NCBI GenBank assembly: GCA_038063735.1 | Contig: JBBTUN010000010.1 | Location: forward strand, 1-60,124 | DNA: 60,124 nt | DNA from: Patescibacteria group bacterium | Lineage (GTDB): Bacteria > Patescibacteriota > Microgenomatia > Curtissbacterales > GWA2-41-24 | Reading direction: 5' to 3' | Part shown: piece after piece, positions 14,586 to 56,857 of the stretch | Layout of the letters: each line of letters opens with the position of its first letter | Position numbering within the stretch: position 1 is the first letter of the stretch | Notes under the pieces: model-generated | The model's input: the letters and a program-made list of their open reading frames with translations, nothing else | The model's database searches: none | What the model was told of the DNA's origin: nothing | Made by a program: the position numbers and the translations under genes

Positions 14586-14590
14586 AATTC

Positions 14591-15248: not shown

Positions 15249-15320
15249 GAACTATGAACCGTGAACTATGAACCGTGAACTTTTCACTTATCACTTATCA
15301 CTTTTCACTTATCACTTTTT
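15249..15320. repeat. composite heptamer arrays (GAACTAT/GAACCGT, then TCACTTW x5)
   Basis: This is the right copy of the repeat flanking hicBA. It directly abuts the pilin stop codon at 15326. Confidence 0.85.
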
Positions 15321-15325
15321 AAATC

Positions 15326-16106: not shown

Positions 16107-17231
16107 ATGAAAAAGAGGTTGAAGGTCGGGACAAGATTGAGGCGGGTGAGAAAGTTGGAAACCAGGCACTTTATACTTGGGACTGCTCTTGTTTTCTCTT
16201 TAGGCGTTTTTGTGTTTTCTTTGTTAACAAGACAGGCTTTTGCGGCTGTTGCTGTAGTTTCCCCGTCTAATATGCAGGGTTGGGTATTTGAGGTTAACAG
16301 CCCGGATGGTATAGGAACATTTGTTGCAGGCCCCGCTACTCCGCCAGGCGGAATTGGCAGTGTGCGTTTATTTACGGGAACAAATGGGACTTTAGCAATT
16401 GCTTTTCATAACATTTCTTATGCAAGCCTTAAGTTGAGCGATATCACTAAATTAGATTATTCAACTTACGCACAAACAATCAGTGCTAACTATCCGAGGT
16501 TAATAATGGATGTTACCACCGAGTTTGGGACAGATACTCTTTATTTTGATCCTACAGCGCAAAGTCAAGCAGCTGCTAAAAATGTATGGCAAAACTGGAA
16601 TGCTAAAGATGGCAATTGGACGGCATCATTATTTCCAGGATTTACGGGCGGGACTCTTTCACAGTATGTTACTTATGTAGGTGGATTTTCTTCCCAAAAT
16701 GTCACTGTTATTAACAGGCCAGATACGACTGGAGGTTTGAGAATGGAAATTGGTCCAGGTTCGGCAGGTGATGTATTTGACGGGAACGTGGACAACTTTA
16801 CCATTGGTATTTTGGGTGTTGACATGACTTATGATTTTGAGCCGGATGTGGCACCGACGCCTATACCTACACCTTCGCCAAGCCTCAGTCCAAGCCCTAC
16901 ACCTATACCTACACCTTCTCCGAGCGTCAGTCCAAGCGCAAGTCCTGCACCGAGTCCGACGCCTCCACCGAAAGGTACGCCGCCTTGTTATTTCACAGAT
17001 TCTCAGGGGGCACAACGCGGATATGGGGATGTGAACAATAATAGAATTGTCAATGCAACTGATGCCATTCTAGTCTTAAGAAGCATTTTTGGAATTAATC
17101 CTGTCCTTACCGGTGACAACAAGAAAGCAGCGGATGTAAATGTTAATGGTAGAGTAAATGCTTCGGATGCCACTCTTATCTACCAATTTGTTTTTGGGAT
17201 CACAAATACCTTTAAGGCCTGTTCCAAATAG
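16107..17231 (+). CDS. secreted protein with an N-terminal beta-rich domain, a PT/PS linker and a C-terminal dockerin-like module
   Basis: Signal anchor present. The duplicated Ca-binding segments 'DVNNNRIVNATDAILVLRSIFG' and 'DVNVNGRVNASDATLIYQFVFG' resemble a type I dockerin. Confidence 0.65.
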   Translation: MKKRLKVGTRLRRVRKLETRHFILGTALVFSLGVFVFSLLTRQAFAAVAVVSPSNMQGWVFEVNSPDGIGTFVAGPATPPGGIGSVRLFTGTNGTLAIAFHNISYASLKLSDITKLDYSTYAQTISANYPRLIMDVTTEFGTDTLYFDPTAQSQAAAKNVWQNWNAKDGNWTASLFPGFTGGTLSQYVTYVGGFSSQNVTVINRPDTTGGLRMEIGPGSAGDVFDGNVDNFTIGILGVDMTYDFEPDVAPTPIPTPSPSLSPSPTPIPTPSPSVSPSASPAPSPTPPPKGTPPCYFTDSQGAQRGYGDVNNNRIVNATDAILVLRSIFGINPVLTGDNKKAADVNVNGRVNASDATLIYQFVFGITNTFKACSK

Positions 17232-17290: not shown

Positions 17291-17319
17291 TTGACATTTG
17301 GGGGGTTTTAAGATATATT
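17291..17319 (+). promoter_or_regulatory. sigma70-like promoter (TTGACA, 17 nt spacer, TATATT)
   Basis: TTGACA at 17291-17296 and TATATT at 17314-17319, 15 nt upstream of the ATG at 17334. The TTG start at 17298 used by the ORF track lies immediately after the -35 box, inside this promoter. Confidence 0.55.
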
Positions 17320-17333
17320 TGCACAACTTGAAA

Positions 17334-20401: not shown

Positions 20402-21079
20402 ATGACTTATACGCTGGATAAAAGAATTTTATTAGTAAGAACAATAGGAAATTTTTTGGTTTTGGGCACAATTATTTCCATAGGTTTTACCTTTTGGCCC
20501 ATTATGTCAACCGTTGCCAGGCACAATATAGAAAAGTGGCAGGGGAAGAAGTTTGAGGCTTCTGCGCTTGCCACAGCCAGCAGCCAATCTTTTGGCTCAC
20601 TTCTTGGCAAAAGCGACGAGAACATAAAAATACTTGTTCCAAAGGACCCTAACTTTTCCATTATCGTTGAGAAAATTGGTGCGGATGCGACAATTGTGCC
20701 TAATGTAGATGCTTCCAATAAGGAAATCTATACCGCGGCATTAAGAAGGGGAGTTGCCCATGCGCTGGGTACTTCGTTTCCAGGTCAGCCCGGTGTGACA
20801 TATTTGTTTGCACACTCGACAGATACGATATTTAACGTTCCAAGGTATAACGCAGTTTTTTACCTTCTAAACGATTTGACGCCGGGGGACAGGGTGGTCA
20901 TATTTTTCAATAACAAACGCTACGATTATGCGGTTTCCGAGAAAAAAATCACCGAACCGGAAGATGTGGGGTATTTTACTTTAAAGACAACTGAGCAAAT
21001 ACTTGTTTTGCAGACATGTTATCCACCGGGAACCACCTGGAAAAGGCTTTTGGTGGTGGCAAAGCCGGTGAGTAGTTGA
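20402..21079 (+). CDS. sortase (second copy)
   Basis: 'VTYLFAHS', 'ILVLQTCYPPGT' (TLxTC-type motif) and 'KRLLVV', plus an N-terminal TM helix. Confidence 0.75.
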   Translation: MTYTLDKRILLVRTIGNFLVLGTIISIGFTFWPIMSTVARHNIEKWQGKKFEASALATASSQSFGSLLGKSDENIKILVPKDPNFSIIVEKIGADATIVPNVDASNKEIYTAALRRGVAHALGTSFPGQPGVTYLFAHSTDTIFNVPRYNAVFYLLNDLTPGDRVVIFFNNKRYDYAVSEKKITEPEDVGYFTLKTTEQILVLQTCYPPGTTWKRLLVVAKPVSS

Positions 21080-21159
21080 TGGTTCATGGTTCGTGGTTCG
21101 TAGTTCGTAGTTCATGGTTCATGGTTGGTGGTAGCTATGCTCTACGAACTATGAACTAT
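21073..21159. repeat. inverted heptamer arrays between convergent genes (terminator-like hairpin)
   Basis: 21073-21133 reads tagttgatggttcatggttcgtggttcgtagttcgtagttcatggttcatggttggtggtag. 21141-21159 reads tctacgaactatgaactat, in the complementary sense. The arrays overlap both stop codons. Confidence 0.8.
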
Positions 21160-22394
21160 TTTAGATTTATCGAGTAGAGGTTGGGAAGAGAATTTTCCGC
21201 CTGGGTCAATGTTGTCAAGATGATGAGCCTTGAGCCTGACGGGTGCGCAAAAACAAACCCATTGACGAATTTTCCGGTATAAATTGTCATTTTATTGTTG
21301 CCATCTGTTTCTATAATAGAAATGAGGTCTTTTTGGGCAATGACCAGGTGTTTTGAGTCCGGAAACCAGGAGATGTTAATTAAATCTGTAAGGTCCGGCA
21401 ATGTGTAATCTTTTTTGAGCTTAAGGTCGTAAACCTTATTTTTACCTTCCCCGTTTTTGTAAAGAATCTTTTCTTCGTCCGGCGAAAACATGAGGCCGGA
21501 AGGGGAGTAGTTAATTAGGTTCACAGTAGACGGTTCACGGTTCACGGTTTTTTTAGTGTTTTGGGTGGTTGGGGATTGTTTAACGCTTTTTGGTGTTGGA
21601 GACGGTTTGGTGCTGGCAATTTGCGCCGAAGTGGTGGCATCTTTTACAGAATCAGGGGCAAGAATTGCAGAAGTTTTAGCCCTTTCGTCCAATATTTGTT
21701 GCCAGCTCGTGAGTGTTGCAGCTAGTGAACCGGTTACGTCTTTTGCGCTCTGGTCGGATTTTTCGCTGTCCACTAGCAAATTAGCACTTGCCGTTCCGTT
21801 TTCGTCTTCGAACCGGGCGATTAGTTCTTTTGAATCCGGGTTCCAAATAAATCTGCTTTTAGAATAATCTGTACCAGGGGTGTTTTTGGCAAGCAGCTTA
21901 GTATTTTGCCTAAACGGAAACGGGCTGTTGTCCATTGGCAATAGATATAATCCACCGCGTTCTCCTGGAACCGCGTAGACGATTTTGGCGCCATCCAGAG
22001 ACAAAGTAGGGTTGGTGCTGCCCGTGGTGGTTAGCGGTTTAATCTCCGGCGCTAGGGGGAACAGAAGGGCATTTATTTCTGTTGCCAGGTCTTCTTTGAT
22101 GTCGACGTCTTTTTCCCAAGTCGTGTAGCCGTCTTTTTCTATACGGACTTTGTAAGTCCTTGGTTCAAGATAAGCGATGTTTGTGTTGGTTGCGGAAGTT
22201 AGCCGGCCGTCTAAAAAAACGTTTGCACCCGTGGGTGTTGAAGTTGCGACGATAAGGCCGGTTCTGTCTATAGTGCCTTTTTTAAGGTTTGGCTTGAAGC
22301 CGCGGGCATAAAAAATTGCTCCGAGAGCAACTAAAAGTACGATTCCTGTTATGCCAAGTGTAAAAAAAACGCGATATTTGGAAAGATGGGTCAT
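21156..22394 (-). CDS. membrane-anchored PEGA-domain / TolB-like beta-propeller protein
   Basis: N-terminal TM helix. The PEGA-like segment is 'TPTGANVFLDGRLTSATNTNIAYLEPRTYKVRIEKDGYTTWEKDVDI'. The C-terminal repeats are 'WNPDSKELIA', 'FSPDEEKILY' and 'WFPDSKHLVI'. Confidence 0.6.
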   Translation of the reverse strand: MTHLSKYRVFFTLGITGIVLLVALGAIFYARGFKPNLKKGTIDRTGLIVATSTPTGANVFLDGRLTSATNTNIAYLEPRTYKVRIEKDGYTTWEKDVDIKEDLATEINALLFPLAPEIKPLTTTGSTNPTLSLDGAKIVYAVPGERGGLYLLPMDNSPFPFRQNTKLLAKNTPGTDYSKSRFIWNPDSKELIARFEDENGTASANLLVDSEKSDQSAKDVTGSLAATLTSWQQILDERAKTSAILAPDSVKDATTSAQIASTKPSPTPKSVKQSPTTQNTKKTVNREPSTVNLINYSPSGLMFSPDEEKILYKNGEGKNKVYDLKLKKDYTLPDLTDLINISWFPDSKHLVIAQKDLISIIETDGNNKMTIYTGKFVNGFVFAHPSGSRLIILTTLTQAENSLPNLYSINLK

Positions 22395-22679: not shown

Positions 22680-22757
22680 GATACAAGAAAGATGCAAGAA
22701 TTTTAAATTTTAAATTTTAAATTTATAATTTCGAATAATTAAAACAAACATAATAAA

Positions 22758-24353
22758 ATGAGGGAATATCTTAGGCCGTCCGTTAGTACGTTTGCTGACG
22801 AGTCGTTGGATTTTGGGGGTGGAGTAATTGTGTCTAGCACTAGCGACATTGAGCATTTTAATTCGCTTCCAGATTCAGGCGGCACTTTAGAACTGCGAGA
22901 AAGTAAGCCCAGGGACAAAAAGCATTTTTCAAAACGGGTTCTTGTACTTGCCAATCTTGTGCCAAAACCGCTGCAAAAGTCGGTTGAAGGGGTACTTTTG
23001 CTGGCTGCTGCCGGACTGTCTACGGGTGCCGTTTGCGGAAAGGATGAGGAAAAATTGCCGGGTATTGATGAGGCTTACGTTGTTAACCAGGCCGTGGTCG
23101 CCAGGTCTCTCAATCCAAACGGAATCTTTCAGTATCCTGTTCCCATTGATGGTAGATATCTAATTCAGCGCGGTTATACAGAAATAGATGAACATGACAA
23201 ACAGCATAATGGTGAAGACGTTATTAATGGCCAACTGGATCATTCTAAGACATGGCTAACTTTTCCTGTGCTTTCAATCGGAGATGGTAATGCCTGTTTG
23301 AATCCCAAGAATAGGCAGGGCACAGCGGTTTTTATAACTCACAACGTTAGCGGAAGAATTATTTATTCATATTATGGTCATTTGGATAAATACTTCAAAA
23401 AAATTCCTAATTGCCTAGACGAAAACGGAAAACCCACCGGCCTTGGCATTTTTGTAGATCGTGGGCAAATTATCGGCTATGCCGGGGCAACTGGTATGGC
23501 AAATCCCAATCTATTGCATTTACACTTCTCTGTAAGTGGATCAAGCGGTGCAAATTTTGATGCCTATGATGTTTGGAACACGCGCGAGTTTATTCCCAAC
23601 ATAACGGGAACCAATGGCAAGTATTGCGGACCAAAAACCCTTTGGGTAAATTGCCCAGTTGATCCGAATAAGAAGGCTGACCTTGTGCCTACGGTTGTTC
23701 CTATTGCCACACTTGCGCCGGTAGAGACTGTTGGGGTGCCAAGTACGGTGGTTATTAATAAAAATACTTTTACGCCAGCGCCTGAGCCGACGGTTGCGCC
23801 TGTTTTAAGGCTCGAAGATCTTGATCCTTATAATCCTGCCGAGCGGGCCAGGTGGGCTGAGCTTGCCCAGAAAAAGATATTAGATACCGCTTGGAAATTT
23901 GTAAATGACCTTACGTCGGGTACCGGGGCAGACCTTGAAGATGCTTATAACTTGCAGATTCCGGAAAGTCTGGAGTCTGCGCGCTTAAAGGATAATGGGT
24001 TATATGGGCATAAGGCTAGCATGGAAATTCTTGAGGGGTGCAGTTTGGAGATGGATCCAAGTTTGACAAGAGATGTGGTTGTAAGTTTCCCGGTAGGTAC
24101 GGGTGTTCCAAGGAATCTGGATGAAGTAAGTTATCTAAATTATCAACAGGGCTATCAGAGAGAAAGGGTAAAAGTTTTTATTAGCCTGACACATAATAGG
24201 GCCGATGCTCATGGTACCAGACTAGGTTTTAAAAGATTTGATGTGGGAGACCCTTACACCCAACCATATATTACCTTTGAGGTAGTCGGGAAAGATGTAT
24301 ATATAGCCGAACCTAGATTTTGCACTTATGAGAACTCAACGTTAAGGCGTTAA
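22758..24353 (+). CDS. M23/LytM-family metallopeptidase domain protein
   Basis: 'HNGED' (HxxxD), 'YYGHLDKY', 'GQIIGYAGATGMANPNLLHLHFSV' (HxH). Confidence 0.7.
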   Translation: MREYLRPSVSTFADESLDFGGGVIVSSTSDIEHFNSLPDSGGTLELRESKPRDKKHFSKRVLVLANLVPKPLQKSVEGVLLLAAAGLSTGAVCGKDEEKLPGIDEAYVVNQAVVARSLNPNGIFQYPVPIDGRYLIQRGYTEIDEHDKQHNGEDVINGQLDHSKTWLTFPVLSIGDGNACLNPKNRQGTAVFITHNVSGRIIYSYYGHLDKYFKKIPNCLDENGKPTGLGIFVDRGQIIGYAGATGMANPNLLHLHFSVSGSSGANFDAYDVWNTREFIPNITGTNGKYCGPKTLWVNCPVDPNKKADLVPTVVPIATLAPVETVGVPSTVVINKNTFTPAPEPTVAPVLRLEDLDPYNPAERARWAELAQKKILDTAWKFVNDLTSGTGADLEDAYNLQIPESLESARLKDNGLYGHKASMEILEGCSLEMDPSLTRDVVVSFPVGTGVPRNLDEVSYLNYQQGYQRERVKVFISLTHNRADAHGTRLGFKRFDVGDPYTQPYITFEVVGKDVYIAEPRFCTYENSTLRR

Positions 24354-24428
24354 CTTATAGTATATTAATTTTAAACCCTATAACATATTTTCTTGACATT
24401 GGTTTTTAAAATGGACTAATCTGAAAGT

Positions 24429-24701
24429 ATGCCAGTTTCCCCGGTTGCCGGCGTGCCGCCGCTTAGCACGCTACACGATTTTGACAGGAGAATTAGTAAT
24501 TTTGCGCCTTACTATATTGCTCCGGGTTTAACCAAGAAAAATTTTTACAGGGAGAATGGGCAGATAATACTAGCTTCTATGGTAGCTCTTACTTTGCTTG
24601 TTTTCCTTTTTCTGACTACCAGTGGGGTGCTAGCGTCAGCTCGTCCCATGAGTGGTGAAGCAATTGATTCTGCTATGCAACTTTCCCCGTACGCTTTCTA
24701 G
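24429..24701 (+). CDS. small membrane protein, hypothetical
   Basis: 90 aa with one TM helix (ILASMVALTLLVFLFLTTSGVLA). Confidence 0.35.
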   Translation: MPVSPVAGVPPLSTLHDFDRRISNFAPYYIAPGLTKKNFYRENGQIILASMVALTLLVFLFLTTSGVLASARPMSGEAIDSAMQLSPYAF

Positions 24702-24877
24702 TTGTAAACCTAAAATTCCAGCAAAAGTAGCAAAAGGCCAGGCTTTTAGCTTGGCTGTCACCCCGGCTTAAAGCCTGGCCTTAAGCCGGGTGTTGATCTT
24801 TGTGGTATAATTCGCGCTGTTTAAAACCAGACATGAGCGAAAGAAATGTACATCGTGCGGTGAGGGGACCAAGAGCT

Positions 24878-25540
24878 ATGCTTGCAGAAGCTATGCTTTT
24901 TGGGAGCGCAGCGTTGGTTGCATGTGGTGGAGGAGACGGTAAGAGTGCTAAGACTCCGGAAGGGGGAGCGCTAGGAGTAGATGTCGTTCCGACTGTTGGA
25001 GCAACTGTTGGGCCAACCGAAGCACCAACGATTGTACCTACAGCTACGGCCGCAAAGCCTGAGAGTTTGAGTCCGCAAGAACTGATTAGTGCCGGTGACG
25101 ACGTAAGTAAGATGTTTAGAGAGGGCTTTGACGGCTTAGACGTTAGCACAATACCGTACGATAAAATTCCACAACCTGCGCAAAGGGACCTGCAGTCTAT
25201 ACTGGACGCGGTAAGTATATGCACAGGGAAAGTGCCATACCCTTATCGTGATGATGCCGAAAAACAGAGGATGGCGCAGGATCCAACTTTTCTTATCACC
25301 GGTCTCTCCGGCCTTTGCGCGCTTGCCGGCGAGGCTTCCTTAAGGTTTTATAATGCGCTTGACAACGATCCTGCAAGGCAATCGCAGTTCGAGCAGGCTA
25401 ATATGCAGATGGAAATAATTCATCTCTCAATGTTGAAAGGATTTTCGCAGATACATACGAATGTTCCGTTTAAGCCTTCATTTTGGCAGAGCCAGAAGCA
25501 GCAATTTTATCCATTCGGAGCTACCGGCACTTCTAATTGA
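24878..25540 (+). CDS. putative lipoprotein
   Basis: The ATG at 24878 gives MLAEAMLFGSAALVAC|GGGDG (lipobox L-V-A-C). A GAGGGG motif lies about 12 nt upstream. Confidence 0.55.
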   Translation: MLAEAMLFGSAALVACGGGDGKSAKTPEGGALGVDVVPTVGATVGPTEAPTIVPTATAAKPESLSPQELISAGDDVSKMFREGFDGLDVSTIPYDKIPQPAQRDLQSILDAVSICTGKVPYPYRDDAEKQRMAQDPTFLITGLSGLCALAGEASLRFYNALDNDPARQSQFEQANMQMEIIHLSMLKGFSQIHTNVPFKPSFWQSQKQQFYPFGATGTSN

Positions 25541-25595
25541 AGGAATTTTTTACTTGACACTTCGTTCCTATTTGACCTAAGCTGAAAGTAGACGT

Positions 25596-26477
25596 ATGCC
25601 TGTCCAATCTGCGGTTAGTGATAAGAGTGGGGTTGTTGATTCTGATCCAAATGGTTTGTTGGGTGGTTTGTCGCCCAACGCCGTTCCTTCTTTTCCCGCT
25701 GGTGGCGCCAGGGCGCAGCCTGCACCCGCCGGAGGTTCTGGTAGTTCCCCAAAGAAGGGTTTATTCCATAATGCAAAGTGGTTTGTGTTATTGGCACTTC
25801 TCGTATTGATAGTTGCTTTCATCGCTTTCTTTTTGAACCCCGCTAAGCCTTTGGGGAAAGTGCCCACCTCAACGCCAAACAATTTGGAGGAATTTGTGGC
25901 TCCAATTAATGTTTCGGATGTGTTGTTTCCAAGCGATTTCCAACGGGACATATTCTTAAAAAACTTCCAGGATGCTGCCAAAACCGGTGATAGTTTAACC
26001 AGATATAAGCTGCTTGATGATAATTACACCAGGCTTTTGGGGTTTTACACTCAAGATCATGACCCAAAAACCCGCGAGGTGCTAACACAATATTCTACCT
26101 ATATGAAGAGTAACTATGCTGACCAAGCCCAAAAGAACAGTTATGCTGTGCCTTGCTACGATTTGGGTTGCGGAAAGGCCAATTACCTCGACGAGGCAAA
26201 AAGCATAAAAGAAACAATCGATGCCAGTACTGTCCTGGAAAAGGATCTCAAAGATAATTTAGACAAAAATTTTGAGGCTGCAGCATTTTCTGCTTCTAAA
26301 GAAGCGCAATTTTCGTATTACGAACAGGTTTTCCAGTCGCTTAAGGGCAGCTATGAAAAGACCAAAGACAACAATTTAAAAGAGATAGCAATTAAATTGC
26401 GGGATTTTATAAAGGCAAGTTATGCTGATTTGTACGAGGTGAATTTGAAAATTAAGCCGGACTTATTTGATATATGA
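25596..26477 (+). CDS. bitopic membrane protein with a helical ectodomain (partner A of giant protein A)
   Basis: 293 aa with a TM helix (WFVLLALLVLIVAFIAFFL). It is a paralog of 30046..30861, sharing 'RYKLL[DE][DE]N[YF]..L.GFYT' and the Cys pair C-x-D-x-x-C-G. Its stop overlaps the next ATG (ATGA). Confidence 0.6.
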   Translation: MPVQSAVSDKSGVVDSDPNGLLGGLSPNAVPSFPAGGARAQPAPAGGSGSSPKKGLFHNAKWFVLLALLVLIVAFIAFFLNPAKPLGKVPTSTPNNLEEFVAPINVSDVLFPSDFQRDIFLKNFQDAAKTGDSLTRYKLLDDNYTRLLGFYTQDHDPKTREVLTQYSTYMKSNYADQAQKNSYAVPCYDLGCGKANYLDEAKSIKETIDASTVLEKDLKDNLDKNFEAAAFSASKEAQFSYYEQVFQSLKGSYEKTKDNNLKEIAIKLRDFIKASYADLYEVNLKIKPDLFDI

Positions 26478-29400
26478 GAAAACTTTTCTTATTTTCGGTT
26501 GTTTTTATAGCAGCGTTTTTGTTTTTTGTTAGTGCCGGAGCCAGGAAAGCTAATGCACTAGAATTGGGGTCTTCGGCCATAGTTTCTGGATGGCTTGATA
26601 ACACGACCGGGACTATACCGATTACAGTAACGGTTTCGTTTTATTCGGGGGCTGCCGGCAGCCCATTCTTGCTTCCTGCGCCGAATCCTCAAGTTTATGT
26701 GGTGCCGGTAGGACAAAGGGTTTCGGCAAGCTATGCAGATTTTACAGATCGCGGGTGGTATCAGATAAGCTGGGGAACAAGTTGTACAGACCCACCGGTA
26801 CAAACCAGTAATGCAGTCGTACCGGGTGCTTATATTTTTGCCAGCCAGGATGTACACTGCACGACTCCAAATGCGACACCTTCGATTTCTAACACTGCTT
26901 GCGCCAATTTTGGCTGGACTTTGGCGGGTGTTGGCAGTAACGGTGCCAATATCTCCTCATTTGAGATTTTTATGTCGCAGACCCAAAGCGACCTTACGTC
27001 AAATGGTGGTGATCCTGCAATTGGTCCTTACGTTAGTAAGACATCTACTGCGAGATCCCACGACTTTGGCGCACTTTCGCCTGGCACGTATTATGTGAGG
27101 GTGAGGGCAGTTTCGCCGCAGGGAATTGGCAGTTGGTCTTCGGTTAACCAGTTTACCTGCGCACCGGCAGGGTTGGCACCAGTTGCAGCCTCGGGTTTAA
27201 ACGCATCCAGAAGTTGCAACGGCTCCGGAGCGATTACTGCCAATATTGTCAACGTCGCCTTTACTTGGACAAGGTCTACTCCGACGCCAAGTGACGAGCA
27301 ATGGATAGATTATTCTGTTTTCAACAACAATTTTGGGGGCGGGTATGCGAATGCTGGTGTGAATGGTGCAAGTTCCTACAACGGTACAGGATTTGCCCAG
27401 AATATCCGCTATTATTGGCGAATAAACAACAGGTATGGCACAAACTGGTATCCATCGGCAACGGGCAGTTTTGTAACGCCGACTTGCCCGCCCGGAAGTG
27501 TTGGCGGACCGACTCCGCCTCCTGTCTCGCCACCGCCGCTGCCACCTGGAGATATTTCAATAACTGGTGTTGCAGACTGCAGTCTGGGTGGAACGAAATT
27601 AAATTGGAGTATTTCGTACCTTCCTGTTCCGTCTGGTTGGCAACAAATAGAGACAGGAATTTCGTACGCTCCGCTTGCAATCGGTTCACAAGGGTTTGTG
27701 CAGCCCAGTTTTTGGGTTGGGGCAAGCCCTCACTTCTATACAAATGTTCAAGTTCAGAATGAAACTATAACGATACCTTTTGGAGTCACAAATCCTCTTC
27801 CTAATGCTTCCCGCTCGGGGGCGGGATATGCGCCATATACAAGCACCAATAACTTTGGCCAAACATACACTTACTACGCATGGGCTTTTTATAGTGTTGA
27901 AAATCCGCCAGGTTCGGGATCCTGGCAAACCGGGCAAACTGTATCTGCCGGTTCAATAACGATTACAAACCCGGCAAGTTGTGCGCCGGCTATTACTTAC
28001 TCAATAACCGCTAGTGGCACCACAGATTGCATTGACGGGACAAATGCCAAGGTCCATTTAACTTGGACTTCGGACACGGATAATACAACTTATACGATTT
28101 ATAAAGATGGGGTTGCGCAGTCTCCGACAGTTGTCGGGGTGGGGCGGTCGTGGGATTCGGGGCCTGAACCGTCGGGGCAAACGCCCTCGTGGGTGGTGCG
28201 GGGAACCGGAGGGGTAGCCGGGACGGTAAATTCGAATGCGGCTTCTGTGACTACCGCTGCCTGTGAACCTCCGCCCGCAAATCCGGCTCAACTTTCGATA
28301 TCGATTTCATGTAACGGGTCAAATCCTGAAGTTTTCTTTAGATTTACCGATTGGTCTACGAATGAAGACGGGTTTTGGCTTGACGTCAATACCCAACCTT
28401 GGACTGGTCCAACGGCGCCTTCGCCTTGGGGAGTTAAAACTATTACCAGCACTCTTGCTCAAAAAGTTGCAGTTGGGCTACCGAAGCGAACGTTTACTTG
28501 GAACAATGCGGTTTCGACTAACACGGCGGGTCCGCTGGATCTTGGTGGTGATGTTGATGGTGTTACCCCCGGTGCCCAGCTTACACCCGCCAAAAGCACC
28601 AAATATTACTGGCGTGTTAAGGCTTTTAACGCCAGCAGACAAAGTGAGCACGTTTATCCCGCTTCCGGTACTATTGCGCCCGGCGCTTATTTTGAAACGC
28701 TCTCGTGTACACCAAATTATGATTTAAGTGCCAGAATAGTACCTAATTCCTGGAACAAGCAAATTTTTGACGTTGGTGAAACGGCAACACTTAAGGTTGA
28801 GATTACAAATTTACAAACGTCAACAGCGGCTTCCGCGCCTTCGAAGCTTTACTTTTTTCCGGATGGTGTCGGTTTACCTGTTTGCAAAAACCTGGTGGAT
28901 GGGACCTTGGACCCGACTTCTTCTCCGGCAACAGGCGTGCCAAAGGATGCAACGGGTATTGCGAACCAATCGTATGATGTCCTGCCAATTCCTGTTGCGG
29001 ATCCGCTGGTTCCCGGCAGCGGTACGCGGACAATTGATGTAGAGTTTATAGTAAGTAATACGCCAACTAGTTTAACCGGTTATGCGTATGTTGTCCCGTC
29101 GTGTTCTTTTTTGCCGGACATTGGTATAGACCCTAATTTTTTTAACAACCAATCCTTCGGGTTTACGTATATTGTAGGTTCGGATGGGTTTTTTGAAACG
29201 CAGGGCGGAGATGTAGGCGCAGTCGGCAATGTTTCGGTTGCCGTTAAATCCAGCGGCCTTGGGCTTTACCAGTCGGATTATGTGATTGCTGCCGACGATA
29301 TTGAAGATGAGGTGGTTTCTAAAAAAGGTTGGATGCTTGAGAATTACAACAAAAAGTTTGTGCCAACTGGCGGTTTATACGAGCTTTTTGATAAGAAGTT

Positions 29401-29911
29401 TAAAGGTGGAGCTACTTCAACGTGTTCGTTTACGCTATCTACTGCAATAAATTATTGCAGTGGGAATTTGACATTTAACACCTCCGATAGCGCGCCGATT
29501 GGGGATCATGTGTATTTTGTGGAGGGTAACTTGAGAATAAAGAAAAATTTTGAGCTAAATGCAGCAAGCACAATGGTCTTTTTGGTCAATGGCAATGTAA
29601 CTGTCGATCTGCGTGAGAACGGAACAGGACCTTTTGTTAATAGGGTTGACGGCATTTATATTGTCAAAGGGGTATTTTACGATAGCGATGTGGCCGATGC
29701 CGGAATTGCCACGCCTGCTGACGCCTTAACTTTAAACGGTGCACTTTACGCTGAAAATCTCGCGGGCGGGCTTAACTTAAAGCGTTATTTTACAGGACCA
29801 TATAATGCTACTAACGCCCCAAATAGGTTTGTATGGGATCCAAAATATATTATCAAGCTAACCGACTTGATTGGAATAAAATCGATACAGTGGAGGGAAG
29901 TAGCGCCCTAA
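26474..29911 (+). CDS. giant secreted multidomain protein A (Fn3-like modules plus a C-terminal beta-helix-like module)
   Basis: 1145 aa with signal peptide MRKLFLFSVVFIAAFLFFVSAGARKANA. Motifs include 'QDVHCTTPN', 'YYWR[IV]', 'STNEDGFWLDV', a Pro-rich hinge and 'GFFETQGGDVG'. The protein ends 'WREVAP'. Confidence 0.65.
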   Translation: MRKLFLFSVVFIAAFLFFVSAGARKANALELGSSAIVSGWLDNTTGTIPITVTVSFYSGAAGSPFLLPAPNPQVYVVPVGQRVSASYADFTDRGWYQISWGTSCTDPPVQTSNAVVPGAYIFASQDVHCTTPNATPSISNTACANFGWTLAGVGSNGANISSFEIFMSQTQSDLTSNGGDPAIGPYVSKTSTARSHDFGALSPGTYYVRVRAVSPQGIGSWSSVNQFTCAPAGLAPVAASGLNASRSCNGSGAITANIVNVAFTWTRSTPTPSDEQWIDYSVFNNNFGGGYANAGVNGASSYNGTGFAQNIRYYWRINNRYGTNWYPSATGSFVTPTCPPGSVGGPTPPPVSPPPLPPGDISITGVADCSLGGTKLNWSISYLPVPSGWQQIETGISYAPLAIGSQGFVQPSFWVGASPHFYTNVQVQNETITIPFGVTNPLPNASRSGAGYAPYTSTNNFGQTYTYYAWAFYSVENPPGSGSWQTGQTVSAGSITITNPASCAPAITYSITASGTTDCIDGTNAKVHLTWTSDTDNTTYTIYKDGVAQSPTVVGVGRSWDSGPEPSGQTPSWVVRGTGGVAGTVNSNAASVTTAACEPPPANPAQLSISISCNGSNPEVFFRFTDWSTNEDGFWLDVNTQPWTGPTAPSPWGVKTITSTLAQKVAVGLPKRTFTWNNAVSTNTAGPLDLGGDVDGVTPGAQLTPAKSTKYYWRVKAFNASRQSEHVYPASGTIAPGAYFETLSCTPNYDLSARIVPNSWNKQIFDVGETATLKVEITNLQTSTAASAPSKLYFFPDGVGLPVCKNLVDGTLDPTSSPATGVPKDATGIANQSYDVLPIPVADPLVPGSGTRTIDVEFIVSNTPTSLTGYAYVVPSCSFLPDIGIDPNFFNNQSFGFTYIVGSDGFFETQGGDVGAVGNVSVAVKSSGLGLYQSDYVIAADDIEDEVVSKKGWMLENYNKKFVPTGGLYELFDKKFKGGATSTCSFTLSTAINYCSGNLTFNTSDSAPIGDHVYFVEGNLRIKKNFELNAASTMVFLVNGNVTVDLRENGTGPFVNRVDGIYIVKGVFYDSDVADAGIATPADALTLNGALYAENLAGGLNLKRYFTGPYNATNAPNRFVWDPKYIIKLTDLIGIKSIQWREVAP

Positions 29912-29925
29912 AGGCCGAAGGCCTT

Positions 29926-30039
29926 TAGTAGATAGTTGACAGTAGACGGTTGACAGAAGGAAAAAACTGTTAACCATGAACCGTGAACCGTGAACCGTGA
30001 ACCGTGAACTATTAATTATTAACTATTAACTATTAACTA
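29926..30039. repeat. archetypal composite heptamer hairpin element
   Basis: The structure is (AGTAGAT AGTTGAC AGTAGAC GGTTGAC), then aaggaaaaaactgttaac, then (CATGAAC CGTGAAC x4), then (TATTAAT TATTAAC x3). It is preceded by the hairpin aaaggcc-gaa-ggccttt (29909-29927). Confidence 0.9.
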
Positions 30040-30045
30040 AATAAC

Positions 30046-30861
30046 ATGCCTAAACTGCCTGAAAACCGTAAAGAAAGAGAGTTTGAACTTTTAAACAAGG
30101 ATTCCTGGAATAGGGGAAGTCTTGTCAAGCAAAAACCTTTCCATAGACCGAGGAATTTAAAGCTGCCCAAAAAACCGATCGGCATTTTGCTAGTTGCAGT
30201 TATTGTCTTGGGCGGGCTTTATATCTTTGTCCAGAAATATTACCCTGATTTGCTAAAACCTAAAGCGCCAATCCAAACGGAAGCTAAAGATTTTGAGTAC
30301 CCTGTCGACATTAATAAAATTTCTTACCCGAGCGATGTATTAAAGGAAAAGTTTTTGGCCAACTTCAAAAGTGCTTCCCTGGAAAAAGACAGCGACAAAA
30401 GATACAAACTCTTAGAGGAGAACTTTATTATGCTGCGGGGCTTTTACACGGCCAGCTCCGGATACGACTACCGCGTACAACTGGAGGCGTTTACCGACTA
30501 CATGAAGAAGAACTTTCCTAAGCAAGTCGAGATAAATAAAAATTTATACAACTATCTTTGTATCGATAAACAATGCGGGGAAGTAAAAAGCCCCAATGAG
30601 ATTGTCACGATAGCTGCCGAAATTGCCAAAGAAGATGCAATCAACAGCCAGGTTAAAGAGGCAGTGCTTAGAAACTTTGATGCTGCAGGTTTGAATGAAA
30701 AGGACCAATCGGCAAACTTCTATTTAAGCGCCTACTCAATGTTAATATCCGAGGCCAGGCGCACAAAGGACGCAGACGTTAAGGTAACAACCACCAAACT
30801 ATACGATTTTATCGTCAAGAGTTTCCCCGACATCAAAATTCCTGATGATTTAAAACTATAG
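30046..30861 (+). CDS. bitopic membrane protein with a helical ectodomain (partner B)
   Basis: 271 aa with a TM helix (IGILLVAVIVLGGLYIF). Paralog of 25596..26477. It ends 5 nt before the next gene. Confidence 0.6.
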   Translation: MPKLPENRKEREFELLNKDSWNRGSLVKQKPFHRPRNLKLPKKPIGILLVAVIVLGGLYIFVQKYYPDLLKPKAPIQTEAKDFEYPVDINKISYPSDVLKEKFLANFKSASLEKDSDKRYKLLEENFIMLRGFYTASSGYDYRVQLEAFTDYMKKNFPKQVEINKNLYNYLCIDKQCGEVKSPNEIVTIAAEIAKEDAINSQVKEAVLRNFDAAGLNEKDQSANFYLSAYSMLISEARRTKDADVKVTTTKLYDFIVKSFPDIKIPDDLKL

Positions 30862-30866
30862 TTTAT

Positions 30867-33800
30867 ATGAGAAAGTTTGTTTTTGGAGTTGCGCTATTTC
30901 TAGGGCTGTTTTTTTTAAAATCGGTAAGCGCAGATGCAGCTTTGGCTGCGACCATTAGTGGAATACTGGACAACAGGCAGGGAAGCATTCCGGTAACGGT
31001 AAGTCTTTATGTTACCAACGAAAGCGGTGGCTCTGCAGGAAGTTTCTCTCAAACAGTCGCGCAGGGCACGAGTTCAACTTTTTTTCAAACTATCACATCC
31101 GGGGATTTTCCATCCGTTACCTGGTTTACGTCTTGCAACTCGGGAGCTACTACCACTTCCGGGTCTGCCGGAGCATATACTTTCACCCCTCAGGACGTTC
31201 ACTGCACAACGCCCAATTCCACCGTTTCTTTAACTTCTACAAGTTGTGCCGGCACAACAGGTAATGTTGGGTGGAAGGTTAATTTATATCCTGCGCCCAA
31301 CAATACCCCAAACATTGCCAACTTTAAGATTTTTAAGGCAGTTGCGCCCGCCTCGGCGGATACGGATACTTCGCCGATAACGGTTCCGTTGGGTACCAGT
31401 CCGTATAGTCAAAATTTAACCGGACTTTCTACCGGAGCTTATAATGTTAAAGTAGTTGCATATGCAAATAGCCCGGATGGTGGCAGCAGCGTAAGCGCTA
31501 CAGGCCAATTTACTTGCAATACAACAGTAGTAACAGTGCCGACTAACCTGGTTTCGACTGTTACCTGTTCCGGGAGCAATGTGCGAGTAGACTTTACATG
31601 GGCTGCGGCGGCGGGTACTACAATTGTCGGGTATTATGTCGAAACGAGTACGGCAATTACTGATCCCGGGCCTGGCGGTAGCTGGAATGGTCCGGGGGTT
31701 ACGCCCAGCCCTCCAACCAATACTTATGCAAAGATAGAAAGTGGTCTTTCCGGTGCCACAACTTACTGGTGGCATGTTAAGGCAACGCCCCAAACAGGCT
31801 CACTCTTGTATTCTAGTTCTTTGCAGTTTACAACAAACCCGCTAAGCAGCTGCTATCAAGCTGCGAATGCAAGGGAGACAAAAACGTGTTATGGCGGGAA
31901 TACAGGGGATATAAATTTCATTTGGGACACGGCAACACCGACGTTTGCAATTACTTCGCAATACATACAGTTTTCGACAGATCCGAATTTTGTAGCTAGT
32001 TCCGATTGGAGTGTGACGGTGGATGCGGCAAGTTATACGTTCTACAGTTTTAACACATATTTCCTCCCTGCTACCCGTTACTGGCGGATAAAAACACAGA
32101 TGGGTGGCCAGTGGTATTATTCGAATGCCAGGTTATTTTGGACGCCTAGTCAATGTAACACCGGGGTTTCTATGACAGCTGGGGGCGTTAGTTATTGCGC
32201 AGGGGATACACCATCATTCCGTTTTCAGCTGCTACCTTCCGGACAGCAACCTTTGGCGTACTATGTGGGTACGGGGCCGAATGGTTTAAACGTTACGTTC
32301 GTCGCTGCCTTTGACAACTATAGTTTGGACTTAGACAATGGACCATCCGGACATTACTGGCTTAGACATTGGAATTTTGCTGCTGCTTACTATGATTTGG
32401 GCAATTTAGCGCCGGCAAGCTGTTCGGCAGCGGTTAATACACCTGCAGCGCCTACAAGTTTGGGTTACCCCGCATTAAATACAACCTGCGATGTTAATAA
32501 AAAACCTCACGTTGGTTTTACTTTTAAGGATAATTCTACCAATGAAAATGAATTTTGGCTGGAAGTTTCTTCGCAGCCGTTTACCGGACCATCGACGACC
32601 AATCCGGATAACGTGTGGGCAAAGAAGGTAATTACCAGGACTGATGGTACAACAACGGGGGATACAATTACATTCGACTGGTATGACGCGACTACAACCA
32701 ACACGGCCGGGAGGATGGAATTTCCCAATGCTAATCCGCAGGCACCGCCGGCGAGTGAGCTTGTGCCCCTGGATTATGTCAGCTACTACTGGAGGGTTAG
32801 GGCGTATAACAGTGGATCAGCTATTTCCAGCGCAATTATGTACCCCAATGGTTCTGCTTTGAGTACGAGTGTTCCCACCGGCCTTTCATTTATGATTACG
32901 CCCCCCTGCCAGCTTCGCCATGATTTGAAAACAGAAATTGTTTCCGGGTCCTGGAGAAATAGCAGCGGGGTGCAAACACAATCGTTTGTGGCCAGCGAAA
33001 ATGTAAGTGTGGATGTTTTGGTTACTAATGTAGTAGGGGCGAATGTAACGACTTCGCCTGCACTCACTCCTCTTTATTTCTACTATAAGGGTGGTGCAAG
33101 CATGCCTGACTGTACAGTAGGTACCTCAGGAGGTACGGCACCGCCAGACGGAGCAATCCCTGCAGTTCCCCAGCTTTACACCATCAATGCCCTAGCACCC
33201 GGGGATACACAGACCATAACGGTGCTATTTAACGTGGGTAGCAGTGTTAGCGCATTTACTGCGTATGCATACGCAGCGCCAACATGTACTTTTACCGATT
33301 TGGGTACCGACCCCTCTTGGGGAAACAACAAATCCAATGGTTTTTCGTATACTGTCGGAGTTAACGGGTTTTTTGAGACATTTCGCGGTGATGTGGGGTC
33401 TGGAGGGAAAATAAGTGTGGGGGTTAATTCTTCTGCTTTTGCTACCCCGATATACCAATCGGAATATGCAATTGGCGCTGTTGACATTAATAATACGAAT
33501 TCGAATGTACAATCTAAAAACAATCTTGAGCTTGACGGATATTCAAAGAATTTAGTTCCGTCCGGTGGCGTTTACAAGTACTTTGCAGACAGGTTTTTGG
33601 CGAAAGCAAAGGCAAATGATCCTCTAGGCCAAACGTGTACTCTTACACATGGTGCCACCTATAATCTGGGGAACAAATTTTATTACTGTGCAGGAACCGC
33701 AAATATTGATGCGCTAAGTCTTGTGTCTGGCAACCCTGTATTTTTTATCGATGGTGACCTGAACATAAATAATAATGCTGGCTGGAACACCCCTTCGAAC

Positions 33801-34133
33801 GTAAATTCTGTTGTGTTTATTGTCAAGGGAAACATAAATGTGGCAACTTCGGTGCAAACTATTCGCGCTGTTTTAATTGCAGGCGGATCGTTTACAGACG
33901 GAACTAATGGTGGAGAAATATCGACGGGTATGGGTACTTCCGGCAAGCTTTTGATATGGGGTGCTCTTTATGTTGATGGGCAAATGAATTTGGTAAGGCA
34001 TTGGGGTGGAGGAGACATTGGTTTGAATGCAACTACACCTTCACTACAGGCTGCCAGCTATTTTGCCAACATTCCTTTACTTAACTCGATTCTTTCAACA
34101 TCTCCGGTTGGTTGGAAGGAAGTGGCGCCGTAA
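30867..34133 (+). CDS. giant secreted multidomain protein B (paralog of A)
   Basis: 1088 aa with signal peptide MRKFVFGVALFLGLFFLKSVSADA. The motifs 'QDVHCTTPN', 'YYWRVRA', 'STNENEFWLEV' and 'GFFETFRGDVG' occur in the same order as in A. The protein ends 'WKEVAP'. Confidence 0.65.
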   Translation: MRKFVFGVALFLGLFFLKSVSADAALAATISGILDNRQGSIPVTVSLYVTNESGGSAGSFSQTVAQGTSSTFFQTITSGDFPSVTWFTSCNSGATTTSGSAGAYTFTPQDVHCTTPNSTVSLTSTSCAGTTGNVGWKVNLYPAPNNTPNIANFKIFKAVAPASADTDTSPITVPLGTSPYSQNLTGLSTGAYNVKVVAYANSPDGGSSVSATGQFTCNTTVVTVPTNLVSTVTCSGSNVRVDFTWAAAAGTTIVGYYVETSTAITDPGPGGSWNGPGVTPSPPTNTYAKIESGLSGATTYWWHVKATPQTGSLLYSSSLQFTTNPLSSCYQAANARETKTCYGGNTGDINFIWDTATPTFAITSQYIQFSTDPNFVASSDWSVTVDAASYTFYSFNTYFLPATRYWRIKTQMGGQWYYSNARLFWTPSQCNTGVSMTAGGVSYCAGDTPSFRFQLLPSGQQPLAYYVGTGPNGLNVTFVAAFDNYSLDLDNGPSGHYWLRHWNFAAAYYDLGNLAPASCSAAVNTPAAPTSLGYPALNTTCDVNKKPHVGFTFKDNSTNENEFWLEVSSQPFTGPSTTNPDNVWAKKVITRTDGTTTGDTITFDWYDATTTNTAGRMEFPNANPQAPPASELVPLDYVSYYWRVRAYNSGSAISSAIMYPNGSALSTSVPTGLSFMITPPCQLRHDLKTEIVSGSWRNSSGVQTQSFVASENVSVDVLVTNVVGANVTTSPALTPLYFYYKGGASMPDCTVGTSGGTAPPDGAIPAVPQLYTINALAPGDTQTITVLFNVGSSVSAFTAYAYAAPTCTFTDLGTDPSWGNNKSNGFSYTVGVNGFFETFRGDVGSGGKISVGVNSSAFATPIYQSEYAIGAVDINNTNSNVQSKNNLELDGYSKNLVPSGGVYKYFADRFLAKAKANDPLGQTCTLTHGATYNLGNKFYYCAGTANIDALSLVSGNPVFFIDGDLNINNNAGWNTPSNVNSVVFIVKGNINVATSVQTIRAVLIAGGSFTDGTNGGEISTGMGTSGKLLIWGALYVDGQMNLVRHWGGGDIGLNATTPSLQAASYFANIPLLNSILSTSPVGWKEVAP

Positions 34134-34152: not shown

Positions 34153-34280
34153 GTGGACAGTAGACAGTTCACAGTAGACGGTTAACAGTTAATTGTTCAC
34201 GGTTCACGGTGAGAAAGTTGACAGAAAGCGGTTCACGGTTCACAGAAAAGAGTTAACGGTCAACCGTTTACGGTTTACAG
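34153..34280 (+). repeat. long degenerate heptamer array, GTTCAC sense
   Basis: ggacagtagacagttcacagtagacggttaacagttaattgttcacggttcacggtgagaaagttgacagaaagcggttcacggttcacag... It is preceded by the hairpin aaaactgc-gga-gcagtttt (34133-34151). Confidence 0.9.
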
Positions 34281-34281
34281 A

Positions 34282-34632
34282 TTAGGGTTTAACAGAATTT
34301 TTCAAAGCGTTTATTCTTTTTGCCAAATTATCTACTCGTGGGTAAATTTCTTCGAATTCATTAGGTGTAATGTATTTAAGCTCTAAACAGATCTTTAAAA
34401 GTGGTACTAATTCATAACACGAGCCACGAGATATGTCTAAAAAATGACGAAAATCCTTTTTACTTCTTGAAGAACCTTCTGCAATGTTTAAAGAGATGGA
34501 AACAACAGCTCTTCTAATCTGGCTGGTAAGACCGAAAAGCTCTTCTCTGGGAAACTTTTTGCTAAATTTGTAAATATCTAAAGCTAGTTTTAAGGAGTCT
34601 TGGTAAACATTTAAATTTTCAAAACTCAGCAT
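34282..34632 (-). CDS. four-helix-bundle protein (23S rRNA intervening-sequence protein / Avd-like family)
   Basis: 'FENLNVYQDSLKLALDIYKFSKKFPREELFGLTSQIRRAVVSISLNIAEGSSRSKKDFRHFLDISRGSCYEL' is the family signature. Confidence 0.8.
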   Translation of the reverse strand: MLSFENLNVYQDSLKLALDIYKFSKKFPREELFGLTSQIRRAVVSISLNIAEGSSRSKKDFRHFLDISRGSCYELVPLLKICLELKYITPNEFEEIYPRVDNLAKRINALKNSVKP

Positions 34633-34643
34633 TTGTTTTATTC

Positions 34644-34762
34644 TACTATGAACAGTGAACCATTTACTGCCTACCGTGAACTGTCCGCTGTGAACTTCTG
34701 ACCTATTTTATCTTACTACGAACTATCAACTATGAACCATGAACTGTTAACTGTGAACTTTG
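34644..34762 (+). repeat. long degenerate heptamer array, GTGAAC sense (inverted relative to 34153-34280)
   Basis: ctactatgaacagtgaaccatttactgcctaccgtgaactgtccgctgtgaacttctgacc...ctacgaactatcaactatgaaccatgaactgttaactgtgaac. Confidence 0.9.
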
Positions 34763-34806
34763 ATCCACTTAATACCCGTTTAGGTTAACAAATTTTAAAG
34801 CGCTAC

Positions 34807-35867: not shown

Positions 35868-35935
35868 GGTTCATGGTTCATGGTATTTTGAAAATAGTCT
35901 TTTCTATTAACTATTGACCACTAACTATGAACTAT
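35868..35935. repeat. inverted heptamer pair directly after the mreB stop (terminator-like)
   Basis: ggttcatggttcatggt (35868-35884) is followed by ctattaactattgaccactaactatgaactat (35904-35935). Confidence 0.75.
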
Positions 35936-37510: not shown

Positions 37511-37826
37511 AAAGTAAAATTTTTGACAAATTTTTCAAAATTTAAAAATAAGGGCTCCTAGTATATTGTTATTAACGCTTTTTTAAAGCTTATAGATAAT
37601 TTTAAATTTTAAATTTTTAATTTTAAATTTTTAACGATCTGGCTTTAAAAATGATGCATTTGGCTAGGTTAAATAACTTACTCAAAATTGTATTTTTTGC
37701 TAAAAAGTTTCTCTAAAAAATATTGACTGATAGTAAAATTAGTGTATTTTTGTCGTTGATGGTTTTTGACCTTTGATGCTAGACTGAAGTTGTGGCTTAG
37801 GGCCCAGCTTTAACTGCCATATTCTT

Positions 37827-40917: not shown

Positions 40918-40955
40918 TAAATGGTTGATGGTTGATAGTTTATGGTTCATAGTTA
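40918..40955 (+). repeat. heptamer array abutting the HTH gene start codon
   Basis: taaATGGTTG ATGGTTG ATAGTTT ATGGTTC ATAGTTA. Confidence 0.85.
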
Positions 40956-56852: not shown

Positions 56853-56857
56853 TGGGC

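Follow-up and report, generated by a model that had tools for sequence, protein, structure and literature searches.

Two tandem two-gene cassettes were analysed in a stretch of 60,124 nt (contig JBBTUN010000010.1 of assembly GCA_038063735.1; hereafter the window) from a Patescibacteria group bacterium. The genome is of the CPR (candidate phyla radiation)/Patescibacteria type, Curtissbacteria (Microgenomates), and homologues of its genes are named Candidatus Curtissbacteria. Each cassette comprises a gene for a small membrane-anchored protein (the partner) and, immediately downstream, a gene for a secreted protein of about 1100 residues (giants A and B; Table 1). Both giants end in a module of about 250 residues, here called EVAP, which, judged from profile searches, defines a very large uncurated family of the CPR/Patescibacteria. 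Genes of this family are mostly preceded by a gene for a membrane-anchored protein, and the module appears, with statistical support from profile comparison, to be remotely homologous to the DUF7305 body of PilX-like minor pilins. We infer that each cassette encodes a cell-surface fibre and a membrane-tethered accessory protein; this functional reading is tentative and is held with slightly less than even confidence.

The family has no name and is defined here by the module at the extreme C-terminus of its members. The signature consists of W[FL].T.GGDVG, a Cys pair, the rungs V.F[VI].G[ND]L.[IV] and.[VI]F[IV]V.G[ND][IV], PKYL, and the ending [WYF].E[VI].P-COOH. An exhaustive HMMER search with the C-terminal profile against 1.84 billion representatives yielded thousands of 50%-identity clusters, 2,920 at E<=1e-3 and 1,075 at E<=1e-10. 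The match reaches the last residue of the protein in every listed case; moreover, 136 of the 155 listed family proteins are at least 300 aa long and end in [WYF]-x-E-x-x-P, most commonly as WKEVAP, WREVAP or WQEVAP. The family hidden Markov model (HMM) scores giant A with E=6e-82 and giant B, whose cluster is P0032 in this search, with E=5e-78. Full-length members carry signal peptides, and their N-terminal passengers are variable, including Fn3/Ig, CARDB, VWA (P0154, P0166 and P0177) and dockerin domains. No Pfam or NCBIfam model in the copies searched, and no PDB sequence, covers the module, and no description of it was found in the literature searched (DUF7305, CPR giant surface proteins). 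The sequence-only reading, made earlier from the letters of the window, had been unable to assign the giants to a family. This is still true in that no well-characterised system claims either protein of the cassette; however, the giants do belong to this large unnamed family.

For the genomic context, 56 loci (L numbers below) were collected from exact protein look-ups, from a scan of genomes, and from a scan of metagenomes with a second, distant subfamily. The pattern-based scan of genomes relied on the alignments A2 and A6, as the broad alignment of the module (A5) was too diverse for it. The named loci with the module are from Curtissbacteria, Woykebacteria, Saccharimonadales and other Patescibacteria. 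Typical CPR EVAP cassettes were also seen in L017, titled Candidatus Nanoarchaeia archaeon, and in L007, L009 and L024, whose titles read uncultured Gammaproteobacteria; an error of binning or labelling is the probable source of these taxonomic names.

The position upstream of the EVAP gene (the slot) was counted after deduplication in the 38 EVAP-terminated genes whose upstream sequence extends for 700 nt or more. A slot gene was defined as a same-strand gene with a small (84-360 aa), N-terminally membrane-anchored product, the transmembrane (TM) segments being called by a heuristic. The survey of relatives suggested by the sequence-only reading bore out the adjacency, since such a gene lies upstream in 34/38 EVAP genes and in 3/50 other long open reading frames (ORFs) of the same loci (Fisher p=1.7e-16), whereas the helical partner family itself is confined to Curtissbacteria-like genomes and unrelated membrane proteins occupy the slot elsewhere. 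The distance between slot gene and EVAP gene lies between -16 and +34 nt and is most often -4. The four exceptions comprise an insertion-sequence integration (L027), a miss of the TM heuristic (L028), and two cases in which the gene for a membrane protein is 143-161 nt away. Pairs often recur in tandem, two to four in a row (L005-L008, L022, L030 and L031).

The occupants of the slot outside the Curtissbacteria-like loci are diverse. They include a 2-TM family with the motif 'DIL..LQN.P' and a small beta or rhodanese-like domain, 1-TM rhodanese proteins (L047, 6e-11; L053, 2e-9), and PrsA-like proteins with SurA_N and peptidyl-prolyl isomerase (PPIase) domains, which exceed the Pfam thresholds in L008 and show the same domain order below threshold in L026. 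Other beta-domain proteins were also found. In the metagenomic locus L052, the slot gene (2549-3211) overlaps the start of the EVAP-family gene, and its product is rich in Cys and has a Hint/intein-like domain (PF01079, E=4.5e-10); the L049 occupant resembles a PilX_N-like pilin by eye from its N-terminus, with no Pfam match. The small upstream proteins of the distant loci were considered as divergent homologues of the partner, and this was rejected because hhalign and phmmer show separate families. Even orthologues of giant A differ in this respect: the slot contains the helical partner in the window and L001-L004, a PrsA-like foldase in L008, and only a conserved TM protein of ~84 aa in L007, which looks like non-orthologous displacement. 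With the slot constant and its occupant changing, gene position speaks for a membrane-tethered factor in maturation or assembly and less for a structural receptor of the module.

The sequence-only reading had given the partner a cytoplasmic N-tail, one TM helix and a helical ectodomain, and the AlphaFold2 model of partner A (built with 22 sequences) agrees. The N-tail (aa 1-55) is disordered, the TM helix spans aa 58-80, and the ectodomain (aa 100-293, ~190 aa) is an all-alpha helical repeat with a predicted local distance difference test (pLDDT) score above 90. The partner is predicted to be an N-in bitopic membrane protein. The motif C187-x-D-x-x-C192-G is invariant and sits in a loop. A word-indexed search found only 22 clusters, all of them Curtissbacteria-like, and the RYKLL.. 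and C-x-D-x-x-C-G motifs are present in the alignment of 22 partners. As anticipated, no named family was found: partners A and B match no family in Pfam, NCBIfam, PHROGs or PADLOC and contain no SurA_N or parvulin PPIase domain (Pfam, NCBIfam), and the partner profile matches no PDB sequence. The Foldseek search of the model gave nothing significant, the best being TPR or designed helical repeats (E>=0.09), with no match to PrsA, SurA or trigger factor.

The giants consist, from the N- to the C-terminus, of a signal peptide, a beta domain, several Fn3/Ig modules, a CARDB-like Ig domain and the terminal module. Both begin with a classical cleavable Sec signal peptide, with cleavage predicted at ANA|LE and ALA|AT. 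Twelve Cys residues are invariant in the alignment of giants (n=12), which fits an extracytoplasmic disulfide-bonded protein. The several Fn3-like modules suggested earlier were recovered in part: M1 (aa 133-232) matches Ig/Fn3 weakly in Pfam, and M2 and M5 clearly repeat one another (hhalign 97.3%, E=2e-11), but no detectable relation was found for M3 and M4 in the module comparison. The motifs QDVHCTTPN, STNE..FWL.V and GFFET..GDVG, the beta-rung motifs and W[RK]EVAP are all present in the giants. The motifs quoted in the sequence-only reading, for giants and partners alike, could each be located, and most are invariant across the 12 giants and 22 partners. The giants lack LPXTG, TM segments and a lipobox, and all 12 aligned giants end in W-x-E-V-[AE]-P with nothing beyond. 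Searches of Pfam and NCBIfam gave no SLH, WxL, LysM or other wall-binding domain, and no match to PilX_N, N_methyl or PF05567. Across Pfam, NCBIfam, PHROGs, PADLOC, PDB sequences and Foldseek, the giants gave generic Ig/Fn3/CARDB matches only.

The AlphaFold2 model of the module is of mediocre quality (pLDDT 63) and shows beta-rungs and helices, not a propeller. When the model of this region was compared with PDB and BFVD by Foldseek, only the preceding CARDB/Ig domain was matched, and the module itself, at this pLDDT, was not.

The four ORFs of the two cassettes lie where the sequence-only reading had placed them, and the genes are coupled as it described, by a 4-nt ATGA overlap in pair A (gap -4) and by a 5-nt gap in pair B (+5). 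The start context TATATGAGAAA is common to giants A and B. Both pairs of genes are paralogous and highly diverged, as had also been noted: in BLASTP, the partners share 29% identity over 245 aa (E=1e-29), and the giants share 32% identity over 604 aa in the C-terminal ~600 aa (E=1e-66) and 33% in the N-terminal 275 aa (E=8e-23). Orthologues of partner B are present in L007, L008 and L025. Giant A clusters with the leading giant of the tandems in L007 (44%) and L008 (38%), whereas giant B and partner B cluster with the pair that comes second in these tandems (31-37% and 41-45% identity, respectively). The A-type and B-type orthologues keep their tandem order in L007 and L008, and because they pair off in this way, the tandem is older than the split of these genomes. 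The earlier proposal of an old duplication with both copies kept is thus upheld, and the two cassettes are, by these sequence relationships, ancient paralogues retained side by side in several genomes. The adjacency of two such paralogous cassettes suggests two fibres with differing specificities.

The type IV pilus cluster of the window includes a protein (57515-58771) whose relatives carry PF23981 (DUF7305) and PF14341 (PilX_N), one of them being named PilX in its source. A likeness between this protein and the terminal module had been noticed by eye, and it survives profile-profile alignment. The module profile (138 sequences) and the PilX-like profile (22 sequences) were aligned by hhalign with a probability of 76.7% (E=2.1e-5, score 44.8) over 86 columns, among them those of the Cys pair and the beta-rungs; with the reversed control, E was 0.024. 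Column shuffles scored 15.0±2.6 (maximum 22.7) and block shuffles 21.7±3.5 (maximum 30.4), all below the observed 44.8, which 0/100 block shuffles reached. In greedy mode, the alignment stays collinear along the entire module, as far as the terminal SW[QK]. Moreover, EVAP genes stand inside pilus loci in some relatives. In L028, three pilins, a PilX_N protein and a small TM gene precede the EVAP gene; in L023, a small TM gene and the EVAP gene are followed by two pilins; and in L049, a PilX_N-like gene and an EVAP-like gene are followed by pilM, pilN and pilO. As a separate observation, the longest-ORF starts of three pilin genes in the window, 15326-15967 (-), 57515-58771 (-) and 59339-59800 (-), run into heptamer arrays, and the prepilin/TM motifs begin 30-60 codons into these ORFs, so the true starts are probably downstream.

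None of the refuting conditions set in the sequence-only reading came true when checked, and its guess of a surface attachment apparatus stands as a tentative proposal. These data can be combined into a possible mechanism. Partner and giant would be co-translated from one transcript with its own promoter-like element and terminator-like hairpin, and the giant would be exported by Sec. The partner, at the outer face of the membrane, might serve the Cys-rich giant, as its chain emerges, as its own holdase, foldase or assembly factor, because in other lineages this slot is taken by PrsA-like PPIases and rhodanese domains. The conserved C-terminal module, which emerges last, would be the cell-proximal docking end, and the variable N-terminal modules would face outward as the binding end for attachment to a host or substrate. 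As the docking target, the minor-pilin tip complex of the type IV pilus is favoured by analogy with PilY1, as a possibility that falls clearly short of probable; retention by the partner itself is rather unlikely, and direct cell-wall binding is unlikely. In its widest form, the proposal would make the module a docking domain used across the Patescibacteria to load interchangeable giant adhesins onto the tips of type IV pili. It would be a functional analogue of PilY1 without the propeller, evolved from the body of a PilX-like minor pilin, with a membrane-tethered maturation factor for each adhesin. This wider form is speculative and doubtful.

Several known systems resemble the cassettes in part. 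Like the giants, the PilY1/PilC adhesins associated with the type IV pilus tip, for example PilY1 of Pseudomonas aeruginosa and of Myxococcus xanthus (PMC11623550), are large, non-pilin, Sec-exported proteins in which the C-terminal domain is conserved and the adhesive N-terminal region varies. The P. aeruginosa PilY1 contains a VWA domain, as do the three EVAP relatives mentioned above, and some EVAP genes follow PilX-type genes in minor-pilin operons (L028, L049). However, the giants lack the PilY1/PilC beta-propeller (no PF05567 match, with beta-rungs predicted), the cassettes of the window lie outside the pilus operon whereas those of L023, L028 and L049 lie inside, and the obligatory upstream membrane-protein gene has no counterpart in PilY1 systems. 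The body of the PilX-like minor pilins (DUF7305 and PilX_N) has a remote, collinear profile similarity to the module, in which the Cys pair, the GNL/V-x-F-V-x-G-N-L-x-I rungs and the terminal SW[QK] take part. In the giants, by contrast, a cleavable Sec signal takes the place of the pilin/PilX_N N-terminal helix, and their module sits at the C-terminus of a stalk of ~900 aa and ends exactly in W-x-E-V-A-P. The partner recalls the PrsA/SurA foldases of monoderms in its tether at the outer face of the membrane and its co-expression with a large Cys-rich secreted client, and SurA_N+PPIase proteins do occupy the slot in L008 and, sub-threshold, in L026; the partners of the window are nevertheless a distinct all-alpha family with no PPIase or SurA_N by sequence or fold. 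Gram-positive multi-Ig/Fn3 adhesins (MSCRAMM-type, sortase-anchored) also have Ig-like strings behind a Sec signal, and the WxL/Csc complexes also combine secreted proteins with a conserved C-terminal attachment domain and co-encoded small membrane-anchored proteins. The giants differ from both in having no LPXTG or WxL and a hydrophilic EVAP end with no TM tail, though a sortase gene is nearby. They were therefore rejected as sortase substrates. A defence system was rejected as well, with no PADLOC matches.

Some observations weigh against docking of the giants to the pilus with a maturation role of the partner. The slot proteins are so heterogeneous (Hint in L052, pilin-like in L049) that one common function is uncertain. 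For the fold of the partner, no structural relative reached significance (best Foldseek E=0.09), and it shows no similarity to SurA_N or PrsA, so it is gene position only that suggests a foldase-like role; likewise, a physical link between partner and giant is presumed from the gene pairing. Partner homologues with no following giant exist in L001 (7420-8256) and L025 (9968-10804). With regard to the pilus, the Pfam DUF7305 HMM gives no match to the module even at E<=10, the hhalign probability is only 77% with 86 well-supported columns, and the module model is mediocre with no structural match. The loci embedded in pilus operons number only 3 of ~38, and in the window the cassettes lie more than 20 kb from the pilus cluster, which makes the pilus link weak here. 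Finally, the cassettes have kept a place directly upstream of mreB-wecG-galT(-PGM/PMM) in the window, L001-L004, L025 and L026.

This last position also speaks for an alternative in which the giants are structural proteins of the envelope and the module binds peptidoglycan or a wall glycopolymer non-covalently, as SLH and WxL do, in keeping with an envelope and shape neighbourhood (M23, mreB, wecG/tagA, galT, PMM). The synteny with mreB-wecG-galT holds even for the distantly related giants of L025 and L026, an M23 peptidase stands at the cluster head, and a conserved aromatic-rich module would fit a universal ligand. The synteny is, however, lost outside the Microgenomates (L005, L023, L028 and L049); no known wall-binding domain was detected, and the VWA and dockerin passengers suggest adhesion or binding over structure. 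The envelope role seems quite unlikely. A two-component fibre independent of the pilus is also conceivable, with the partner ectodomain holding the module on the cytoplasmic membrane and the fibre spanning the wall and S-layer. It would account for the near-universal tight coupling of a membrane-anchored-protein gene with the EVAP gene, for the missing anchor of the giant (cleavable signal peptide; no LPXTG, TM or lipobox) and for the helical-repeat scaffold of the partner, which is typical of protein-protein binding. But the module is highly conserved whereas the slot proteins belong to at least five unrelated families, enzymes among them, so a conserved interface between module and anchor is unlikely; moreover, the A-type giant of L007 has no such partner. 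The retention of the giant by the partner is considered rather improbable.

Two further alternatives have much lower probability. Tightly coupled small genes are typical of toxin-immunity pairs, and the predicted beta-helix-like rungs could be those of a catalytic beta-helix (lyase- or hydrolase-like), which would make the giant a secreted enzyme or toxin and the partner its membrane-bound inhibitor or immunity protein. This is very unlikely: no enzyme or toxin family was matched by sequence or fold, the PPIases and rhodaneses of the slot are not immunity-like, and the module is the constant part of the family whereas toxin domains are usually the variable C-terminal part. The giants might also be prophage receptor-binding proteins or targets of a diversity-generating retroelement (DGR), in view of the 23S_rRNA_IVP/bAvd-like gene beside giant B (34282-34632), with similar genes in L025 and L026, and of a weak match of the Fn3 region to tail-fibre J. 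However, the window genes scanned include no reverse transcriptase, and no template/variable repeat pair or long diverged direct repeat was found; no relatives occur in 2.9 million viral contigs, no viral structural match goes beyond Ig folds, and the neighbourhood has no phage genes. Both the DGR target and the phage origin are effectively refuted by these absences and have a negligible probability.

Much of bacterial diversity falls within the CPR/Patescibacteria, which live attached to host cells. Apart from type IV pili and some 'adhesins' identified by transposon sequencing in Saccharibacteria, their attachment molecules are mostly unknown (PMC10633639, PMC11623550). Surface adhesins and pilus-associated adhesin systems as such are known already, whereas the EVAP module and its cassette are uncurated in the databases searched. 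What is defined here is a large uncurated family with a terminal W-x-E-V-A-P signature, its strict arrangement in two-gene units and, with statistical support, its evolutionary link to a pilin of the pilus tip. With the help of the signature, many giant genes now labelled 'hypothetical' in CPR genomes could be annotated. Members of the family are also present in the Saccharimonadales (L022, an uncultured bin), a group that includes genetically tractable strains, and its role would be testable if a tractable strain has a member. If docking to the pilus tip is true, the tandem cassettes would represent a swappable host-recognition repertoire for the epibiotic lifestyle of the CPR.

Table 1. Features of the cassettes and their surroundings, in positions of the window
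Feature	Position	Strand	Remarks
Partner A gene	25596-26477	+	293 aa
Giant A gene	26474-29911	+	1145 aa
Giant A module M2 (aa 233-340)	27170-27493	+	repeat of M5
Giant A module M5 (aa 599-746)	28268-28711	+	repeat of M2; carries STNEDGFWLDV and YYWRV
Giant A CARDB-like Ig domain (aa 747-895)	28712-29158	+	Foldseek 3idu/2kl6 and other Ig folds; CARDB Pfam matches in relatives
Giant A C-terminal module (aa 896-1145)	29159-29908	+	GFFETQGGDVG, Cys pair, three or four beta-rungs, PKYI helix, WREVAP-COOH
Hairpin overlapping giant A stop codon	29908-29928	+	9-bp stem, GAA loop, -12.9 kcal/mol, z=-3.0
Inter-cassette heptamer arrays	29927-30039	+	AGTAGAC/GTTGACA, AACCGTG x5, AACTATT x5; not cassette-specific
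Partner B gene	30046-30861	+	271 aa; paralogue of partner A
Giant B gene	30867-34133	+	1088 aa; paralogue of giant A
Giant B C-terminal module (roughly aa 839-1088)	33381-34130	+	ends WKEVAP
Hairpin from last base of giant B stop codon	34133-34151	+	8-bp stem, GGA loop, -10.9 kcal/mol, z=-2.6
PilX-like minor pilin of type IV pilus cluster	57515-58771	-	body with remote profile similarity to the terminal module of the giants
Dockerin/TSP3-repeat proteins (two; surface/envelope run)	16107-17231, 17298-19106		
Sortase (surface/envelope run)	20402-21079		
PEGA protein (surface/envelope run)	21156-22394	-	
M23 peptidase (surface/envelope run)	22758-24353		
Promoter-like element CTTGACAT-N17-TAATCT	24392-24422	+	6 nt upstream of ATG of 90-aa gene
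90-aa single-TM protein gene	24429-24701	+	cluster head; homologues head EVAP clusters in L007, L008, L009 (phmmer E=1e-17 to 4e-32)
246-aa predicted lipoprotein	24800-25540	+	LVAC lipobox; homologues directly upstream of partner in L001, L013, L004 (E=1e-7 to 2e-9)
Promoter-like element copy CTTGACAC-N17-TAAGCT	25553-25583	+	12 nt upstream of partner A ATG
23S_rRNA_IVP/bAvd-like four-helix-bundle gene	34282-34632	-	between giant B and mreB
Heptamer arrays, part 1	5534-5565, 14551-14594, 15249-15329, 15856-15931, 21072-21126, 21518-21549		
Heptamer arrays, part 2	22699-22731, 29927-30039, 34157-34296, 34640-34763, 35868-35884, 37598-37631		
Heptamer arrays, part 3	40921-40954, 54604-54635, 56754-56853, 58675-58762, 59727-59750		

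The cassettes are preceded in the window by genes for pilins, dockerin/TSP3 proteins, a sortase (~5 kb upstream), a PEGA protein and an M23 peptidase, the last of which is also kept at the cluster head in L007. They are followed by the Avd-like 23S-rRNA-IVP gene on the opposite strand and then by mreB, wecG/tagA, galT and PMM. The IVP-family gene is bracketed by inverted heptamer arrays (34157-34199 and 34649-34691; 43-nt arms, 77% complementary), and genes of the same family stand beside the giants in L025 (two copies) and L026. Two small genes lie between the M23 gene and cassette A. The 90-aa protein matches no Pfam family. The 246-aa lipoprotein was compared with the partners as a candidate paralogue and proved unrelated.

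The promoter-like element was found by aligning upstream regions, and relatives show the same arrangement. The pattern CTTGACAY-N16-19-TAANCT has exactly two copies in the window (0 expected), both with the N17 spacer. Their position 6 and 12 nt before the ATG codons implies that the transcripts are nearly leaderless and that the 90-aa gene and cassette A are co-regulated. A sigma-70 consensus scan gave nothing above chance, and the 5' coding motif CAGCCTGCC is not enriched in the window. Unrelated small proteins at L008:2885, L009:860 and L025:5480 begin with (GGAYCA)GCCTGCCCA, comparable to the starts at 25596 and 24429 in the window; the encoded N-terminus is MDQPAQ in the relatives and MPVQ or MPVS in the window. 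The motif, which shows no enrichment in the window, may be a common translation-initiation or regulatory signal.

Both giants had been described as followed by a short hairpin and then by heptamer arrays, as a shared punctuation. The two hairpins and the arrays are real, but the arrays are not punctuation of the cassettes. Arrays with a 7-nt period (GTGAACC, GTTCATG, AACTATT, ACTTATC, AATTTTA and others) occur at most gene boundaries across the window, which indicates a genome-wide intergenic element; for example, GTGAACYGTGAAC with at most one mismatch has 21 matches in the window against 0.11 expected.

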